DNA from: Candidatus Nealsonbacteria bacterium
Lineage (GTDB): Bacteria; Patescibacteriota; Minisyncoccia; Minisyncoccales; PWPS01
Length of the DNA stretch: 64,000 nt
Assembly (NCBI GenBank): GCA_003555075.1
Contig: PWHW01000002.1
Coordinates: 14,856 to 78,855 of the forward strand
Direction of reading: 5' to 3'
Shown: positions 9,152 to 55,452 of the stretch, piece by piece
Numbering within the stretch: position 1 is the first letter of the stretch
Layout: each line of letters starts with the position of its first letter
The notes under the pieces: generated by a model
What the model was told of the DNA's origin: nothing
What the model saw: only the letters and a program-made list of their open reading frames with translations
The model's database searches: none
Made by a program: the position numbers and the translations under genes

Positions 9152-10231
9152 ATGTGCAAAATGAAGGATCTGGAATTTCCCATCTTTAAGACAAAAATGG
9201 ATAACGACCGAAAGTTCGATCTTTCCGATCCCAAAGGAAGAGAGGAATATTTTTCATTCAAAGCGGGAAACGAAATAGAGAAAATAAGGAGTTTTCTCGA
9301 TCAAAGCGCCTTTATTATATATCTTCTGGGAAAGAAAAGTGCCGGAAAAGGTACATACTCCAAGATGTTCTCTGAAGTGATAGATCCCGAAAAGATAGAT
9401 CATTTTTCCATAGGAGATATGATCAGGGACCTTGATAAAGAGCTTGAAGACGAGAAAAAGAGTGAAGAACTTTTTGATTTTTTGGAAGAAAATTATAGAG
9501 GGTGGCACTCTCTGGAAGAAATAAAAGATATTCTCAAAGGAAGGAGCACCTCAAAGCTTCTTCCCACAGACCTTATTCTTACTTTAGTAAAAAGGGAGAT
9601 CGCAAAAAGGGGAAGAAAAGTTATTTTTATTGATGGTTTTCCGAGGGACATGGATCAGATATCCTATTCACTTTTCTTTAGGGATCTTATCGGATATCGT
9701 GACGATGCGGATTTCTTTGCTCTTATTGATGTTCCCGAGCAAGTGATTGACGAGAGAATAAAATGGAGGAGAATTTGCCATAAGTGCAACACTTCACGAA
9801 ACTTGAAACTACTCCCCACCTCTAAGGTGGAATACGATAAAGAGACAGGTGAGTTTCATCTTGTTTGTGATAATCCCGGTTGCGATGGTGGAAGAATGGA
9901 AAGGAAAGAGGGGGATGAGAGAGGGATTGCTCCCATCAAGGAAAGACTTGATATGGATGAGAAGCTCATAAAACAAGCGTTCAATCTTTATGGGATTCCC
10001 AAGATCCTTCTTAGAAATTCTGTTCCTGTGAATAAGGCAGAAGAATATGTTTCCTATTATGAGCTTACTCCGGAATACAACTATCATTTCAATGAAGAAA
10101 AGGGGGAAGTGGAGATAAAAGAAACGCCTTGGACGATAAAGGATGAAAACGGTGTGGAGAGTTATAGCTTATTGGCTCCTCCGGTAGTAGTTTCTTTTAT
10201 AAAGCAGCTTGCAGATCTTCTTAAGGTGTAA
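9152..10231 (+). CDS. Divergent adenylate-kinase-family protein with Zn-ribbon LID and N-/C-terminal extensions (359 aa)
   Basis: P-loop GKKSAGKGT, IDGFPRD, and LID CHKC...CDNPGC. A canonical adk is present elsewhere at 34305. Confidence 0.7.
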   Translation: MCKMKDLEFPIFKTKMDNDRKFDLSDPKGREEYFSFKAGNEIEKIRSFLDQSAFIIYLLGKKSAGKGTYSKMFSEVIDPEKIDHFSIGDMIRDLDKELEDEKKSEELFDFLEENYRGWHSLEEIKDILKGRSTSKLLPTDLILTLVKREIAKRGRKVIFIDGFPRDMDQISYSLFFRDLIGYRDDADFFALIDVPEQVIDERIKWRRICHKCNTSRNLKLLPTSKVEYDKETGEFHLVCDNPGCDGGRMERKEGDERGIAPIKERLDMDEKLIKQAFNLYGIPKILLRNSVPVNKAEEYVSYYELTPEYNYHFNEEKGEVEIKETPWTIKDENGVESYSLLAPPVVVSFIKQLADLLKV

Positions 10232-10237
10232 TAAGTA

Positions 10238-10266
10238 TTGACCCTTTTTTAGTAGAACGATATAAT
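10238..10266 (+). promoter_or_regulatory. Sigma-70-type promoter (TTGACC-17 nt-TATAAT)
   Basis: -35 at 10238-10243 and -10 at 10261-10266, with exact 17-nt spacing. Confidence 0.6.
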
Positions 10267-10272
10267 TGTAAA

Positions 10273-10436
10273 TACCCGCTCGTTAAAAAAAGAATCTGAC
10301 ATTGCACTTTTTTAGGGAGCCGCAAATGACCCTTGTCCCGTGGGGCAAGGCTGAGGCACCCACTTGAGTATATTCTCAGATTTCTTATGACGAGCGGGCT
10401 TAAGATCACCTCCTTACACGGAGGTGATCTTTTTTT
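10273..10436 (+). ncRNA. Candidate structured sRNA (rod-like, 6S-like architecture; class unassigned)
   Basis: Has its own promoter and terminator and no credible ORF. Nested helices 10275-10285/10388-10398, 10290-10299/10376-10386, 10315-10321/10355-10361 and 10331-10338/10343-10350 surround a 15/14-nt central bubble. Confidence 0.5.
10403..10436 (+). terminator. Intrinsic terminator (11-bp stem plus T7)
   Basis: AGATCACCTCC / GGAGGTGATCT stem with loop TTACAC, followed by TTTTTTT. Confidence 0.8.
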
Positions 10437-10550
10437 GACAAAATTCTTTTGGAAAAAATAAAGATAAATTTATCCTATATCGACTCTTGTTTTTTGACGA
10501 GGGTTTGTTATAGTTCAACTGTTGTTATAAAAATTAATCACCAAAGAGCC

Positions 10551-10796
10551 ATGTGGGATCAAATAAAACAGGCCAAGGAACTTCAAAGATTACAAGGAGA
10601 ACTCAAAAAAGAGAAGGTGGAGGTAAGCGAAAGTGGTGTGAGAATGGTTGTGAACGGAAAGATGGAAGTGGAAGAGGTAGAATTGAGCGAAGGGGTTTCA
10701 AAAGAGGAGCAAGAAAGAGCAGTCAAAAAATGTTTCAACGAAGCAATGAAAAAAGTGCAGATGGCGGCTGCGCAAAAAATGCAGTCCATGCGATGA
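10551..10796 (+). CDS. ybaB: YbaB/EbfC-family nucleoid-associated protein
   Basis: MWDQIKQAKELQRLQGEL...VEVSESGVRMVVNGKMEVEEVEL...AVKKCFNEAMKKVQ matches the family pattern. The upstream part of the track ORF (TTG start) is discarded. Confidence 0.85.
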   Translation: MWDQIKQAKELQRLQGELKKEKVEVSESGVRMVVNGKMEVEEVELSEGVSKEEQERAVKKCFNEAMKKVQMAAAQKMQSMR

Positions 10797-10817
10797 CATG
10801 AATCTTGCAGAAGATAG

Positions 10818-10849
10818 ACCCCTCTTTGCAGAAGAGGGGTTTTTATTTT
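10818..10849 (+). terminator. Intrinsic terminator after ybaB
   Basis: ACCCCTCTT / AAGAGGGGT stem followed by a TTTTTATTTT tract. Confidence 0.7.
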
Positions 10850-10862
10850 ATAAGGAGAGGAG

Positions 10863-10891
10863 TTGCTATTTTGTTCTTATATACTTATAAT
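10863..10891 (+). promoter_or_regulatory. Candidate promoter (TTGCTA-17 nt-TATAAT) for the 10917-15894 operon
   Basis: -35 at 10863-10868 and -10 at 10886-10891. Confidence 0.5.
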
Positions 10892-11310: not shown

Positions 11311-13740
11311 ATGAATATTCCTTTGGATCAAATTCTTATAATAGTGGGTATCGGGGTGGTCTTACTATTGGCCATTTTTTTCTTTGTAAAGAAAAGAAGA
11401 AAGGGAATGCTTGACAGGAGTCTTGATATGACTCTTTTTCTTGTAAGGTTGCCAAAGCACGAAGAGGATGATGGGAGCGGAAAAGAGGAGGAGAAGAAAA
11501 AGATATCCAAAATGGAACAATTTTATTCCAATTTTCTTTACCTTGATAAAGGAGAGAATTTTTTTTCCAGGATCATTCATGGTTTTCCGAGAGTAGTGTT
11601 GGAAATAGCGTCAGAGGTTGGAGAGAGGGATATTTCTTTTTATGTTGCCGTTCCCTCAAGATATGAAAGTGCTTTAAACAAATATGTTCAAGGAATTTAT
11701 TCGGGTGCCATTGTCGAAAAGATTCCCGGAGACTACACTATGTTCGAGCCCGAAGGAGAAGTATCCGCATCCTATTTGACACAAAAGAGCAACTTCTTTC
11801 TTCCTCTTAATACTTATGAGGACCTAGCAAGAGATCCTCTTGAATCAATTGTCAATTCTGTAACCAATATAAGCGCCGATGAGGGCTCGGCCGTACAGAT
11901 AGTTATTCGACCCACTTTGTTCGATCTAAGGAAGAGAGGTGAGAAAGTTCTTAAAGAGATCACTGAAAACAAGAAAAGTTTGAACGAAGCAACGATCAAA
12001 ACAGAAGAAAGTTCTTTCAAGAAATTCTTAAGAGATATTACAGGAGTTCTTTCAAAAGAAAGTAAAGAAAAGAAAGAAGGAAAGGATCTTCGTGTGGACG
12101 AGGCCACCATTGATCTTATAAGAAAAAAAATAGAAAAACAGGGCTTTGAGGTGAATATACGTCTTATGGCAGCGGCTAAGAGCAGAGAAGACGCAGACAA
12201 AGTTCTCTCTAATCTTGAAAGCAGTTTTTCTCAGTTCACCTCCGGAGTCAACAGTTTTAATATAAAGAGGGTCAAAAGAAAAAAAGCTCTAAAGAGAATG
12301 GTGTATGATTTTAGTTTCAGAGAGTTCAAAAAAGGCCAGTCTTGCATACTGAATTCTACTGAGCTTACGGGAATTTATCATTTTCCTCTTTCTCACATAG
12401 AAAGTCCTTATATAAAATGGGTAAGATCCAAAGAAGCTCCCCCTCCTTCCGAACTTCCTAAAAGCGGACCCGTGCTCTTGGGGGAAGCTGTCTATAGAGG
12501 CGAAAGAAAGGAAGTTTATATAGCTTCTCGGGATGACAGAAGAAGGCACTTCTATATCATAGGACAGACGGGTGTTGGTAAAACATCGCTAATGAAGGAG
12601 AAGATCAGGCAGGATATGAAGAATGGGGAGGGGGTAGGAGTGATAGATCCTAACGGAGATCTGATAGAAGATACCTTGGCAAATGTTCCCAAGAACAGGA
12701 TTGACGATGTAGTGCTTTTTGAGCCTTTCGACAGGGAAAGGCCTTGCGGATTGAATATGCTTGAATGGGAAACTCCCGAACAGCGTGACTTTGCGATGTC
12801 CGAGATGGTAATGATCTTTAATCAACTCTTTGACCAAGCAATTGTTGGTCCCATGTTCGAATATTATATGAGAAATGCCATGGCGGCGTTGATGGCGGAC
12901 AAAGATGACCCGGGCACGGTGGCCGAGATCCCAAGGATATTTTCAGATGATGAGTTCATGGAAAAGAAGCTGAGAAATGTTTCCGACCATATGGTAAGAA
13001 ACTTTTGGTTCAGGGAGTGGAAGCAAACCACAGGGCAAACAAGATCCGATATGCTCGGGTATGTAGTTTCAAAGATCGGAAGATTCGTTACTGATGAAAT
13101 GATGAGGAATATTATAGGCCAACAAAGATCAAGCTTTGATCTAAGTAAAATAATGGATGAAAGAAAAATATTTCTAGCCAATTTATCCAAAGGGCTTACA
13201 GGAGAGATAAACAGTTCTTTGCTTGGAATGATACTGGTTTCTAAAATGCAAATTTCCGCTTTTAGAAGAGCGGCTCTTCCGGAAGAGGAAAGAAAAGATT
13301 TTTATTTGTATGTTGACGAGTTTCAAAACTTTACTACCGATAGTGTGGCCACCATACTTTCGGAAGCTAGAAAATATAGGCTCAACCTTATTCTTGCACA
13401 CCAATATATGCCGCAACTCAGGGAAGAGATAAAGAATGCGGTAATGGGCAATGTGGGGACTGTTGCTTCCTATAGAATAGGAGTGGATGATGCGGAATTC
13501 ATGGAGAGGCAGTTTTCTCCCAATTTCTCTAAGTTTGATCTGGGAAATATAGATAATTATCAGTACATAATTCGAATGCTTATAAACAACCGGGTCACAT
13601 CTCCTTTTAAGATAGCTGCTCCCAAACCCTCTCCCGGGGATGCCGGTGTTGCTATGAAGGCTAGAAAGATATCAAAAGTGAAACACGGAAGACCGAAAGC
13701 AATAGTGGAGAGAGAGATAAAAGAAAGAGCAAAATTATGA
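11311..13740 (+). CDS. TraD/TrwB/VirD4-family (type IV coupling protein-like) P-loop ATPase with N-terminal TM anchor and an uncharacterised ~390-aa N-domain
   Basis: TM helix ILIIVGIGVVLLLAIFFFV. Walker A GQTGVGKT (12562-12585), VIDPNGD, Walker B FYLYVDEFQNF, and ARKYRLNLILAHQYMPQL. Confidence 0.8.
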   Translation: MNIPLDQILIIVGIGVVLLLAIFFFVKKRRKGMLDRSLDMTLFLVRLPKHEEDDGSGKEEEKKKISKMEQFYSNFLYLDKGENFFSRIIHGFPRVVLEIASEVGERDISFYVAVPSRYESALNKYVQGIYSGAIVEKIPGDYTMFEPEGEVSASYLTQKSNFFLPLNTYEDLARDPLESIVNSVTNISADEGSAVQIVIRPTLFDLRKRGEKVLKEITENKKSLNEATIKTEESSFKKFLRDITGVLSKESKEKKEGKDLRVDEATIDLIRKKIEKQGFEVNIRLMAAAKSREDADKVLSNLESSFSQFTSGVNSFNIKRVKRKKALKRMVYDFSFREFKKGQSCILNSTELTGIYHFPLSHIESPYIKWVRSKEAPPPSELPKSGPVLLGEAVYRGERKEVYIASRDDRRRHFYIIGQTGVGKTSLMKEKIRQDMKNGEGVGVIDPNGDLIEDTLANVPKNRIDDVVLFEPFDRERPCGLNMLEWETPEQRDFAMSEMVMIFNQLFDQAIVGPMFEYYMRNAMAALMADKDDPGTVAEIPRIFSDDEFMEKKLRNVSDHMVRNFWFREWKQTTGQTRSDMLGYVVSKIGRFVTDEMMRNIIGQQRSSFDLSKIMDERKIFLANLSKGLTGEINSSLLGMILVSKMQISAFRRAALPEEERKDFYLYVDEFQNFTTDSVATILSEARKYRLNLILAHQYMPQLREEIKNAVMGNVGTVASYRIGVDDAEFMERQFSPNFSKFDLGNIDNYQYIIRMLINNRVTSPFKIAAPKPSPGDAGVAMKARKISKVKHGRPKAIVEREIKERAKL

Positions 13741-13799
13741 CTTTACGTAATTCATTAATTATTTTATAGTTGAATAAAAGTAAAGATCTAGTTTTTAAT

Positions 13800-15668
13800 A
13801 TGGAAAAAAAAGAAAACAGGGAAAAGCAAGAAGAGAAAGGTTTTTACACAAAAAAGATAGAAGAGATAGAGAATGAGTTAAAGGAAAAGAGTGATAACAT
13901 TGATTCTTTGCAAGGAAAAGCAAAAGAAAGAGCTCAAGAAGAAGTGAGTGTGTTAAAAGAGAATTTGGAAAACGTAAAAAAGGAGGCAAAAGAGTTGGAG
14001 CTAAAAGAAGAGGAGCAAGAGGGGGAAGTTTCTGCAAGGGAGTTCCAGGAAGGAGAGAAGCACGAGGAAGAGCAAAAAGAAGGAATTTATGAAGAAGAAC
14101 CCTCTTCGGAAACTGGAGATGATCTGGAAAGAGAATACGGAAAGAAGGTCGTAGAGAAATGGATGGATACGCGTGAGATAACGCCCACCATCAATCCGGA
14201 ATTAAGAAAGAAATTATCAGGTGTTCTGGAAAATGAACAGGTAGAGAGTTCCGCACGTTTGGCAAAAGAATATTTGGAAGAAAAGAATTATAATGTAGAG
14301 AATAAAAATGAGGAAGAGTTGTTGAGCCTGGTATATGGAGATGAGAGCTTTAAAGAAAGATTGAAAAGCAATAAACATGCTGCAAGACTGGGAATGTTAA
14401 AGGAGGCGATCGAGAGGTCGAGAGGAAAAATGACATACAACGAGAGATTACTTGCCTTCAATGAGATTGCGGAGGGTGATTTCCAAGGAATGCCGGAGGA
14501 AAAGAAGGATGTATTAAAGGAATTATATGAGGCGGTAACAGGAGAAAGGTTGGAAGAAGAGGCGCAAAGAAATGTGAAAACAGCGGAAGATGAAGTATTT
14601 AACATGATGGGAGTTGAAGTTACTGATGAAGAATTACTTCAAGCGGAAAAGGAGAATCGAGGAAGGGTGGTGCACGGAAAAAAGAAAGGAAGAGAGGTGG
14701 ATGGAGAAAGGTGGGAAGATTTGAGCAGTGAGGAAAAAAGAGAGGTGCTCAAGGATGATAAAATAGAGGAGATCAAAGGAAAAATATCGGGAGCTGCTGG
14801 AAGTGAACCTAGTCATGCGGAGCTCATCTGGCTCTCCAGGAAGGGCGTGGATTTTGAGGACATTGAAAATATCAGGATGGAAAAAAGAAAGAAAGGAGAA
14901 GGATTTATAAGTAAAATACCTTTTTTGGGAAAAAAGGAGAGAGTTCTTGTTGTTGAAGGTAGCGATGGCAAAGAAAGAGAGATAAATTTAGAGGAACCCT
15001 CTGAGCAGGGAAGGAAAGAGATAGAGGAGCACAACAGAAATGTGAAGGAAGAGGGCGCCGGAGTGTCGATGAACAAAGAGGGGGAATTGGAAATGGTAAA
15101 GAGTTATCTTAGTAAGCTGAGTGAAGAAGAAAAAAAGAGGGATATTGAAAAAGAAGTGGAAAGAGAGAAAGAGAATATACTGGAGAAGTATTGCAATGAC
15201 CAAGAAGAATTCGTGGAGTTGGCTTATGAAAATGTAAAAAAGAAGCTGGCCTCGGTTGAAGAGATAACCGGCGGAGATAGCAAGGAAAGGGTCATAAAAA
15301 GAGAAAGGGATCCTTTGCATGAAGGGGGAAAAAGTCTTAACTTTGAAACTTCAATGGAAGAGTTTGCACAACTATGCAAGGACCCGAGATTTAAGGAGGG
15401 TATGAAGGAAATAATAGAAGCGATGAAGAAAAGAGGTATGGATACGGAGGAGATCAAGGAGTTGGTCAAAGAGGATGAAGAAAAAAAGGGGGAGAAAAAG
15501 GCTGAGACCGAAAAAGAGAAAAAACCTGAAGAAAAGAAAGGAACACCGGAGTCGAAGGGGTTCTTGGAAGGTAAAGCCAAAGAGTCATTGACCTTTTTTG
15601 TCTTTATTGCTCTTGCCGCACTGATGATGATCGCTGCGGCAATGGAAGGAAAGGGAAAGAAAAAATAA
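13800..15668 (+). CDS. Glu/Lys-rich polyampholyte protein with a single C-terminal TM helix (tail-anchored topology)
   Basis: 622 aa from the first ATG (a TTG at 13770 is also possible). No signal peptide. C-terminus is LTFFVFIALAALMMIAAAMEGKGKKK. Confidence 0.65.
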   Translation: MEKKENREKQEEKGFYTKKIEEIENELKEKSDNIDSLQGKAKERAQEEVSVLKENLENVKKEAKELELKEEEQEGEVSAREFQEGEKHEEEQKEGIYEEEPSSETGDDLEREYGKKVVEKWMDTREITPTINPELRKKLSGVLENEQVESSARLAKEYLEEKNYNVENKNEEELLSLVYGDESFKERLKSNKHAARLGMLKEAIERSRGKMTYNERLLAFNEIAEGDFQGMPEEKKDVLKELYEAVTGERLEEEAQRNVKTAEDEVFNMMGVEVTDEELLQAEKENRGRVVHGKKKGREVDGERWEDLSSEEKREVLKDDKIEEIKGKISGAAGSEPSHAELIWLSRKGVDFEDIENIRMEKRKKGEGFISKIPFLGKKERVLVVEGSDGKEREINLEEPSEQGRKEIEEHNRNVKEEGAGVSMNKEGELEMVKSYLSKLSEEEKKRDIEKEVEREKENILEKYCNDQEEFVELAYENVKKKLASVEEITGGDSKERVIKRERDPLHEGGKSLNFETSMEEFAQLCKDPRFKEGMKEIIEAMKKRGMDTEEIKELVKEDEEKKGEKKAETEKEKKPEEKKGTPESKGFLEGKAKESLTFFVFIALAALMMIAAAMEGKGKKK

Positions 15669-17290: not shown

Positions 17291-17364
17291 TCGGGCCGGC
17301 CGGATTTGAACCGGCGATCTCACGCACCCCATGCGTGCGCCCTAAGCCTCTAGGCCACGGCCCG
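17291..17364 (-). tRNA. tRNA-Pro (anticodon GGG), CCA not encoded
   Basis: Acceptor CGGGCCG/CGGCCCG, anticodon arm CACGC-AUGGGGU-GCGUG, T-arm GCCGGTTCAAATCCGGC. Confidence 0.88.
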
Positions 17365-55172: not shown

Positions 55173-55243
55173 AGCGGGGTAGTGAAATGGTATCATTTAG
55201 GGCCCATAACCCTAAGTTCCAGGTTCGAATCCTGGCCCCGCAA
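55173..55243 (+). tRNA. tRNA-Met (CAU), initiator-like
   Basis: Three consecutive G-C pairs closing the anticodon stem (GGG/CCC), a 1:72 A-A mismatch, T-arm CCAGGTTCGAATCCTGG, and anticodon loop CCCAUAA. Confidence 0.8.
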
Positions 55244-55270
55244 CATTCTTATAAATATGTGTTCCAGAGG

Positions 55271-55344
55271 GTCAGGGTAGCTCAGTTGGTTAGAGCGAGG
55301 GACTCATAAGCCCTAGGCCGTGGGTTCGAATCCCACCCCTGACA
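55271..55344 (+). tRNA. tRNA with CAU anticodon (elongator Met or lysidine-modified Ile2)
   Basis: Acceptor GTCAGGG/CCCTGAC, D-arm GCTCAGTTGGTTAGAGC, anticodon loop CUCAUAA, T-arm GTGGGTTCGAATCCCAC. Confidence 0.85.
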
Positions 55345-55376
55345 CATTGTTCATTTCAAGAATGATAAAGCAACAT

Positions 55377-55452
55377 GCGGCCGTAGCTTAGTCCGGCTTA
55401 AAGCGCCTCCCTGTCACGGAGGAGATCGTGGGTTCGAATCCCATCGGCCGCG
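55377..55452 (+). tRNA. tRNA-Asp (anticodon GUC)
   Basis: Acceptor GCGGCCG/CGGCCGC, anticodon arm CCTCC-CTGTCAC-GGAGG, T-arm GTGGGTTCGAATCCCAT. Confidence 0.88.

Follow-up and report, generated by a model that had tools for sequence, protein, structure and literature searches.

The interval 10238-10438 on the + strand of the window, the 64,000-nt stretch of Candidatus Nealsonbacteria contig PWHW01000002.1 that was analysed here, lies between a gene for an adenylate-kinase-like protein and ybaB (Pfam YbaB_DNA_bd), and contains a promoter, a sequence that folds into a rod with a large internal loop, and an intrinsic terminator. We identify it as an ssrS-type gene for a miniaturised, divergent 6S RNA of this Nealsonbacteria-type (Parcubacteria/Patescibacteria) bacterium, with a probability of about 80%. 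On this identification, the RNA is a reduced variant of 6S RNA and not a new kind of RNA. An original prediction, made from the letters of this stretch, had described the interval as an independent transcription unit for a 6S-like or novel small RNA (sRNA), and had given a cis-acting ybaB leader or riboswitch as the other possibility.

The promoter is as originally described, with 17 nt separating TTGACC from TATAAT. It agrees with the sigma-70-type consensus at 11 of 12 positions and is the best of six promoter-like sites between 9000 and 12000, with transcription predicted to start at about 10273-10274. At the other end, the hairpin and T7 tract of the proposed terminator are present, with a stem of 12 pairs rather than the 11 that had been counted. 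The predicted transcript is approximately 165 nt long with the terminator hairpin, and the rod alone is 124 nt in the window copy. The promoter of the RNA follows the kinase stop codon (10229-10231) with no terminator in between, and the terminator of the RNA therefore probably also ends read-through from the kinase gene. The start codon of ybaB follows on the same strand about 113 nt past the terminator, the distance given in the original prediction.

The RNA is far more stable than expected for its composition. The minimum free energy (MFE) of 10272-10436 is -71.5 kcal/mol, compared with -40.0 +/- 4.2 kcal/mol in 200 dinucleotide shuffles (z = -7.58), none of which was as stable. The nested helices that had been proposed are all found in the MFE structure: an 11-bp terminal helix (P1) and a second helix (P2) in the closing stem, a helix on the apical side of the internal loop (P3), and an 8-bp apical helix capped by CGUG (P4). 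P3 pairs GGGAGCC with GGCACCC around an internal A.A mismatch. The coordinates of these elements, and of the genes and signals around them, are collected in Table 1.

Table 1. Features of the 6S-like RNA locus, followed by other features of the window (positions are those of the window).
Feature	Position	Strand	Description
Sigma-70-type promoter	10238-10266	+	-35 TTGACC 10238-10243, 17-nt spacer, -10 TATAAT 10261-10266
P1, terminal helix of closing stem	10275-10285 / 10388-10398	+	11 bp in MFE structure
P2, closing-stem side of bubble	10292-10299 / 10376-10383	+	GAAUCUGA / UCAGAUUU; MFE structure and covariation
Central bubble, 5' strand	10300-10314	+	CAUUGCACUUUUUUA; 15 nt, unstructured, U-rich beside P3
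P3, 5' strand	10315-10324	+	GGGAGCC plus short extension GCA; pairs with 10352-10361; corresponds to GGGagccc of the Rfam 6S consensus
Bulge between P3 and P4, 5' side	10325-10330	+	AAUGAC in the window, WAUGAU in the family consensus; opposite 10351-10354
P4, apical hairpin	10331-10338 / 10343-10350	+	8 bp; tetraloop CGUG 10339-10342, YNNG across the family
P3, 3' strand	10352-10361	+	UGAGGCACCC; corresponds to gggcaCCC of the 6S consensus
Central bubble, 3' strand	10362-10375	+	ACUUGAGUAUAUUC; 14 nt; corresponds to ACCUggaA of the 6S consensus
Intrinsic terminator	10402-10438	+	12-bp stem with 6-nt loop 10402-10431, T7 tract 10432-10438
Adenylate-kinase-like ORF	9152-10231	+	359 aa
ybaB	from 10551	+	start codon at 10551
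Terminator-like hairpin just past ybaB	10816-10842		terminator on both strands
Promoter-like site	10863-10891		TTGCTA-17-TATAAT, 10/12; at start of a 147-aa ORF without Pfam match
TrwB/VirD4-like ATPase	11311-13740		809 aa
Glu/Lys-rich ORF	13770-15668	+	632 aa
tRNA genes	55173-55452; 2423-2506; 17291-17364	+; -; -	Rfam gathering-level matches

Homologues of the RNA were sought in 80 loci taken from GTDB genomes around kinase homologues of 60-88% identity, a route of retrieval that partly builds the linkage between RNA and kinase gene into the sample. With the window RNA as query, nhmmer returned 42 matches, each directly downstream of the kinase gene and on the same strand. A covariance model (R1) built from 20 of these identified one copy in 66 of 81 sources at E < 1e-4, and a second model (R2), built from the 66 R1 sequences, added four further loci, such that the RNA is found in 70 of the 80 related Nealsonbacteria/Parcubacteria loci. 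Five of the ten RNA-negative loci stop within ~90 nt of the kinase gene, while the RNA is absent from L003, L030, L051, L077 and L080, which have sufficient flanking sequence. The window itself holds a single copy. In two loci the arrangement is different: in L033 (L033:4133-4278, - strand) RNA and kinase gene point in opposite directions, and in L074 (L074:5334-5480) the RNA lies 1.3 kb downstream of the kinase gene. Across the family the rod is 113-141 nt long, with a mean of 126. Of the 80 local loci, a degenerate DNA pattern for the RNA picked up only 25, and with looser patterns a metagenome-wide scan would return chance matches by the thousand.

The transcription signals recur with the RNA. 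A promoter with at least 10 of 12 consensus matches is present in 54 of the 66 homologous loci, the first P1 pair lies 6-10 nt past the end of the -10 box in 53 of the 66, which would place the start of transcription at the first helix, and in 60 of the 66 homologues a T-run begins no more than 70 nt after P1. A separate terminator hairpin is carried by the window copy and by most other family members. In five loci (L040:4087-4232, L076:3131-3272, L048:4136-4285, L025:2770-2918 and L027:4107-4249) a run of at least four T lies 0-3 nt after the closing stem, and there the rod itself looks like a terminator. Among the 66 homologues, the longest ORF over the RNA has 5 to 64 aa on the + strand and 1 to 63 aa on the - strand. 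These ORFs are not conserved, which bears out the earlier statement that the interval has no credible ORF, and we rejected a small protein as its product.

Covariation strongly supports the predicted rod, and the search for compensatory changes that had been suggested as a check on its helices gave a clear result. In an alignment of the 66 sequences (A4), which was fitted to the model structure and so inflates pairing somewhat, 93.6% of cells are in standard pairs; shuffling lowers this to 67.8%, and displacing the 3' partners by 1-3 columns to 37-52%. Changes on both sides were found for 27 of 29 pairs, with a covariation score of 0.736, against at most 0.108 in the controls. P2, P3 and P4 also emerged independently when RNAalifold was applied to a plain MAFFT alignment, with 14 compensatory pairs. 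All eight modelled pairs of P1 show compensatory changes, as do all eight of P4, in which 98.4% of cells are paired, and P2 is illustrated by a switch between A-U and G-C at alignment columns 44/179, with 28 sequences of each. At the GGG/CCC end of P3 there is little or no variation, and its distal pairs show covariation; the extension pair A10324-U10352 is kept in 60 of 66 sequences. Since promoter, rod and terminator recur in 70 related loci with compensatory changes, the unit is real far beyond what chance would produce. We conclude that this is a genuine, conserved and independently transcribed RNA gene.

The same comparison indicates that the large internal loop, which had been predicted at 10300-10314 / 10362-10375, is a conserved open bubble, because the pairs that the MFE structure draws across it are not conserved and its 5' strand has no structure of its own. 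These MFE pairs were rejected: their columns are paired in 56.9% of cells, compared with 53.3% after shuffling and 54-59% after shifting. The 5' strand has essentially no self-structure (mean -0.35 kcal/mol over the 66 sequences). In the family, the 5' strand of the bubble measures ~13-18 nt and the 3' strand ~11-17 nt, and A10362 and C10363, directly after the CCC of P3, are invariant in all 66 sequences. Promoter mimicry calls for exactly such a feature, a bubble that stays open throughout the family and has invariant bases where it meets the apical arm.

The link to 6S RNA comes from two homologues that occupy the same position after the kinase gene. L062:4318-4457 matches the Rfam 6S/SsrS model RF00013 over model positions 1-187 with 34.8 bits (E = 7.4e-6), and L044:3454-3591 matches it over the same positions with 25.6 bits (E = 1.3e-3). 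Both E-values include the correction for 4227 families and come from scans as small as those made for the window. The same intervals are matched by R1, with E = 3.2e-12 for L062 and E = 2.4e-8 for L044. Three blocks agree with the 6S consensus in place, namely the terminal helix ccCUgcgg/ccgcGGgg, the CuGA downstream duplex, and GGGagccc ... gggcaCCCACCUggaA by the bubble. P1 of L062 and L044 is aligned to the terminal helix of the model, and P1 of many members (GCCCUGC/GCGGGGC) lines up with it as well. P2 is aligned to the CuGA segment, and would be equivalent to the 'downstream duplex' of 6S RNA. In the L062 and L044 alignments, the conserved core GGGAG.../...CACCCAC(Y)UGGA coincides with the 6S consensus where the apical arm borders the central bubble. 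The Rfam consensus reads ...CuGAgCCgAaaauuuuuauaauaGGGagcccucuuU ... agagggcaCCCACCUggaAcag..., and that of the family ...UCUGR..(U-rich)..A-GGGAGYC ... GRCACCCAC(Y)UGGA..., in which the bubble-adjacent signature GGGag... / ...caCCCACCUggaA is present. Relative to RF00013, 15-20 positions are missing from each strand of the closing stem and ~26 from the apical arm, which accounts for the low scores. Together with the covariation and the open bubble, these alignments and the shared core uphold the 6S-like architecture of the original prediction.

How the RNA might act can be sketched by homology with the 6S RNAs of E. coli and B. subtilis. 6S RNA puts a global brake on housekeeping transcription and is best known from the transition between stationary phase and outgrowth. 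The rod would imitate an open promoter and sit in the DNA channel of the housekeeping sigma-RNA polymerase holoenzyme. The non-template -10 region would be replaced by the 3' strand of the bubble, from the invariant A10362-C10363, and the 5' strand, 10300-10314, would serve as template. When nucleotides are abundant, polymerase would copy a short product RNA (pRNA) from about 10300-10303 into P2, and a product of 12-14 nt would unzip P2 and free the enzyme. The E. coli pRNA is initiated at U44, and we predict the start at about 10300-10303 from this position and the alignment of L062 and L044 to RF00013. We infer both the binding of polymerase and the synthesis of pRNA from this homology. Established 6S RNAs bind the housekeeping holoenzyme as open-promoter mimics (PMC8876501, PMC8414754), with a -10-like element in the 3' bubble strand of E. 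coli 6S RNA (PMC8876501) and a -35-like element in the apical arm (PMC8876501, PMC8414754). When pRNA is transcribed from the 5' bubble strand and on into helix P2 downstream, the RNA refolds and the enzyme is released (PMC8876501, PMC8414754). In addition, an A just 3' of the start in the template is reported for 6S RNAs, as is a widely conserved GG at pRNA position 4/5 or 5/6 (PMC8414754). In the window copy an A lies next to a candidate start (C10300-A10301), and alignment column 48 is A in 42 of 66 sequences.

Several observations weigh against a 6S RNA, beginning with the Rfam comparison that had been proposed as a check, which had a divided outcome. Homologues L062 and L044 match RF00013, as described, below its gathering score. 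The window copy matches no 6S, signal recognition particle (SRP) or riboswitch model: permissive Rfam scans of 411 nt and 133 nt around it gave nothing credible, and RF00013 was matched neither at the gathering threshold nor at E <= 10. Its 6S assignment therefore rests on homology to the detected members. No member of the family reaches the gathering score of 46.4 bits, which is an operational cut-off and not a biological property, and the scores of L062 and L044 are sub-threshold yet significant. L069, scanned alone, gave no 6S match, nor did 15 further loci scanned together (69 kb), so that detection as 6S is marginal; the blank joint scan is probably due to stricter filters and E-value scaling. 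In the reverse direction, R2 found no match in E. coli ssrS (L084, a test sequence confirmed at 100% identity) with filters off. We consider this test uninformative rather than negative, because the E. coli 6S RNA is too diverged.

The structure, too, lacks parts that would be expected. The rod, at 113-141 nt, is a third shorter than the 160-200 nt typical of 6S RNAs, and the window RNA comes to ~165 nt only if the terminator hairpin is retained on the mature RNA. The apical arm has 47 nt (~20 bp-equivalents), where the model has ~73 positions, and barely reaches the site that a -35 mimic would occupy. The template strand around 10292-10305 has no CC, and a GG at pRNA position 4/5 or 5/6 therefore cannot be produced. 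A hairpin of the E. coli type can form in the 3' bubble strand of the window copy (-3.9 kcal/mol, z = -3.9) and in about 25 of the 66 members, with weak family-wide covariation (72.9% compared with 70.3% in shuffles), and we rejected it as a conserved release element on these grounds. A central bubble collapse helix of the B. subtilis type was likewise rejected, with duplex energies at chance (mean z = 0.10). Thus, neither release element of the model 6S RNAs is clearly conserved. The RNA could be a minimised 6S RNA that has lost most of the -35-mimic arm, both release elements and the GG product, and that is now either a minimal mimic with a different mode of release or re-purposed, for example for permanent binding, or by coupling of its expression to the upstream kinase so that polymerase availability tracks nucleotide supply. 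We regard this extension of the 6S identification as a possibility on the doubtful side.

Two features of the apical arm are left unexplained by the 6S assignment, and could be contacts for a protein or for sigma. Most members keep the bulge WAUGAU, and the family also conserves the A.A mismatch of P3, which becomes A-U in L053 and L055. A K-turn or L7Ae-type site in the loop between P3 and P4 was considered, and is weakened by comparison across the family. A K-turn has tandem sheared G.A/A.G pairs beside a 3-nt bulge, and the window copy and its close relatives fit such a motif (...AAU-GA / GA-GGC); in many members the 3' GA is UA, UC, UU or AA, and these positions partly covary with the 5' side as the extension of P3.

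These unexplained features are among the arguments for a lineage-specific sRNA with another job, such as a protein sponge, a base-pairing regulator or a partner of the kinase, which would either only resemble 6S RNA or descend from it without binding polymerase. Both arms are shortened, the bulge and the mismatch fall outside the 6S model, the window copy and most tested members have no RF00013 match, and the pRNA GG motif and release helices were not found. The RNA is also tightly linked to the adenylate-kinase-like gene, in 70 of 80 loci. This linkage, however, is partly a sampling effect, since the loci were fetched through the kinase, and linkage of a 6S gene to one neighbour within a taxon is normal (PMC8414754). 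Also against such an sRNA are the full-length, significant alignments of L062 and L044, with agreement in three separate blocks, and the open bubble, whose invariant apical-edge bases suit promoter mimicry exactly. We consider a different job unlikely. The position of the RNA immediately downstream of the kinase gene, with no terminator in between, and the terminator-like closing stem and U-run of some members might instead point to a 3' untranslated region (UTR) or terminator module of the kinase mRNA, which would stabilise or terminate the upstream transcript and not be a free-standing regulator. In most loci, though, kinase gene and RNA are separated by a near-consensus promoter whose spacing to the first helix is fixed, and the RNA is inverted in L033 and remote from the kinase gene in L074. 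A covarying structure of ~125 nt with an invariant open loop exceeds what a terminator needs, and the 6S matches also speak against such a module, to which we attach little probability.

The ybaB leader or riboswitch of the original prediction has in its favour the arrangement in the window, where the RNA precedes ybaB on a shared strand and ends in a terminator 113 nt before the start codon. It does not survive comparison with other loci: the RNA has its own conserved promoter and terminator, only 12 of the 80 loci have ybaB downstream of the RNA, separated from it by anything between ~35 nt and more than 1 kb, and in L003 ybaB follows the kinase gene directly without an RNA between them. Downstream of the RNA are tRNA genes in L076, L060 and L069, and other genes in other loci. 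No riboswitch family matched the window RNA in the Rfam scans, and we found no alternative antiterminator pairing, the terminator being a separate, self-contained hairpin where a riboswitch would have an expression platform overlapping its sensor. The conservation of promoter and terminator, the variable downstream genes and the exceptions L033 and L074 lead us to rule out control of ybaB, which would be very surprising at this point, and to disfavour a mere 3' UTR. In Firmicutes the SRP RNA gene is found near dnaX-ybaB-recR. The position beside ybaB, the rod shape and an apical half more conserved than the closing stem could thus suggest an SRP (4.5S) RNA, which is the least credible of the candidates and was rejected: no SRP model (RF00169 and relatives) matched in the window scans even at E <= 10, and the apical domain is wrong, with a YNNG loop on a plain covarying helix where an SRP RNA would have a GNAR loop next to conserved symmetric and asymmetric loops. 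The matches to the 6S model stand against it as well.

The surroundings of the gene are themselves conserved. The order of the kinase block is a metallo-beta-lactamase (ComEC-like) gene, a LOG/lysine-decarboxylase-like gene, the kinase gene and then the 6S-like RNA. The protein of the kinase family is unusually long (356-359 aa), is extended at both the N and the C terminus, and has four invariant cysteines (C206, C209, C236 and C241); this long form has more than 4000 homologues and is apparently typical of Parcubacteria. The kinase homologues are named Nealsonbacteria, Parcubacteria or Patescibacteria by their sources. An identical kinase gene is found on soda-lake sediment contigs (GCA_003552105.1, JGI 3300000557), where no gene is called between the kinase gene and ybaB. 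Further along the window, a terminator-like hairpin and a promoter-like site follow ybaB, and the TrwB/VirD4-like ATPase precedes an ORF that is extremely rich in Glu and Lys and has a hydrophobic segment at its end. Five tRNA genes, three of them clustered, are the sole gathering-level matches of the window to Rfam 15; no SRP RNA, tmRNA or RNase P RNA is among these matches.

If the identification as 6S RNA is correct, the locus suggests that Patescibacteria keep a 6S RNA that is one third shorter than usual and is missed by the curated Rfam model. Full-text literature searches for 6S RNA with Patescibacteria or the candidate phyla radiation (CPR) returned nothing relevant, and we found no paper on 6S RNA or other housekeeping non-coding RNAs in Patescibacteria. 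A 6S-type regulator does not seem to have been documented in these ultra-small, host-dependent bacteria. The 70 sequences, with a structure supported by covariation, could seed a new model, and these genes would then no longer be annotated as empty intergenic DNA. There is also a hint that sequestration of RNA polymerase matters even in genomes of 0.6-1 Mb. No new principle is involved, and the interest of the finding is moderate.

The Nealsonbacteria-type RNA shares with the 6S/SsrS RNAs of E. coli and B. subtilis (6S-1) a general layout of closing stem, large open bubble and apical stem with imperfect arms. Canonical 6S RNAs are rods of ~160-200 nt with a central bubble and two imperfect arms (PMC8876501, PMC8414754). 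Also shared are a bubble-flanking core with conserved G-C pairs, a downstream duplex that contains CUGA, and a terminal helix of the CCCUGC/GCGGGG type, in a single-copy gene with a strong housekeeping-type promoter. Its synteny with a neighbour gene at the family level is in keeping with 6S genes, whose neighbourhood is conserved at that level (PMC8414754). In contrast to these RNAs, it has a rod about one third shorter than the 187 positions of the model, with deletions that affect the closing stem but chiefly the apical arm, and a sub-threshold Rfam match or none. It carries an extra intrinsic-terminator hairpin at the 3' end, and differs further in its lack of a template CC, in a 3'-bubble hairpin restricted to a minority of members, and in the missing signal for a collapse helix. 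One member, L066 (L066:4167-4325), has ~30 extra nt within the apical arm and a rod of 141 nt, and may represent an intermediate form, between the short rods of the family and 6S RNA of full length.

Other unusual RNAs offer parallels. Ms1 of Actinobacteria is much longer, at ~300 nt. It is reported as a 6S-related, rod-like RNA that binds RNA polymerase (PMC9130861), and the Nealsonbacteria-type RNA would resemble it in shape and in the polymerase binding that we propose; Ms1, however, is reported to bind the core enzyme and not the holoenzyme (PMC9130861). The non-canonical 6S candidates of Weissella (PMC8414754) similarly have a syntenic locus, a TATAAT promoter, a Rho-independent terminator and weak or no detection by covariance models. 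Their rod with a central bubble is unconfirmed (PMC8414754), whereas the rod described here has strong covariation support. A further comparison is with the engineered 6S78 and 6S82cp, in which the bubble is likewise flanked by short helical arms only (PMC8876501). These B. subtilis 6S-1 derivatives, cut down to 78-82 nt, still go through the whole 6S cycle in vitro: they bind sigma-A polymerase with ~10-fold lower affinity, template pRNA synthesis and are released (PMC8876501), which makes a naturally short 6S RNA mechanistically plausible. Unlike these laboratory constructs, the Nealsonbacteria-type RNA is natural, has ~20 bp-equivalents in each arm and carries the conserved bulge WAUGAU in its apical arm. 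The family thus represents a natural counterpart of the engineered minimal 6S RNAs, and can help to ask which parts of a promoter mimic are indispensable.

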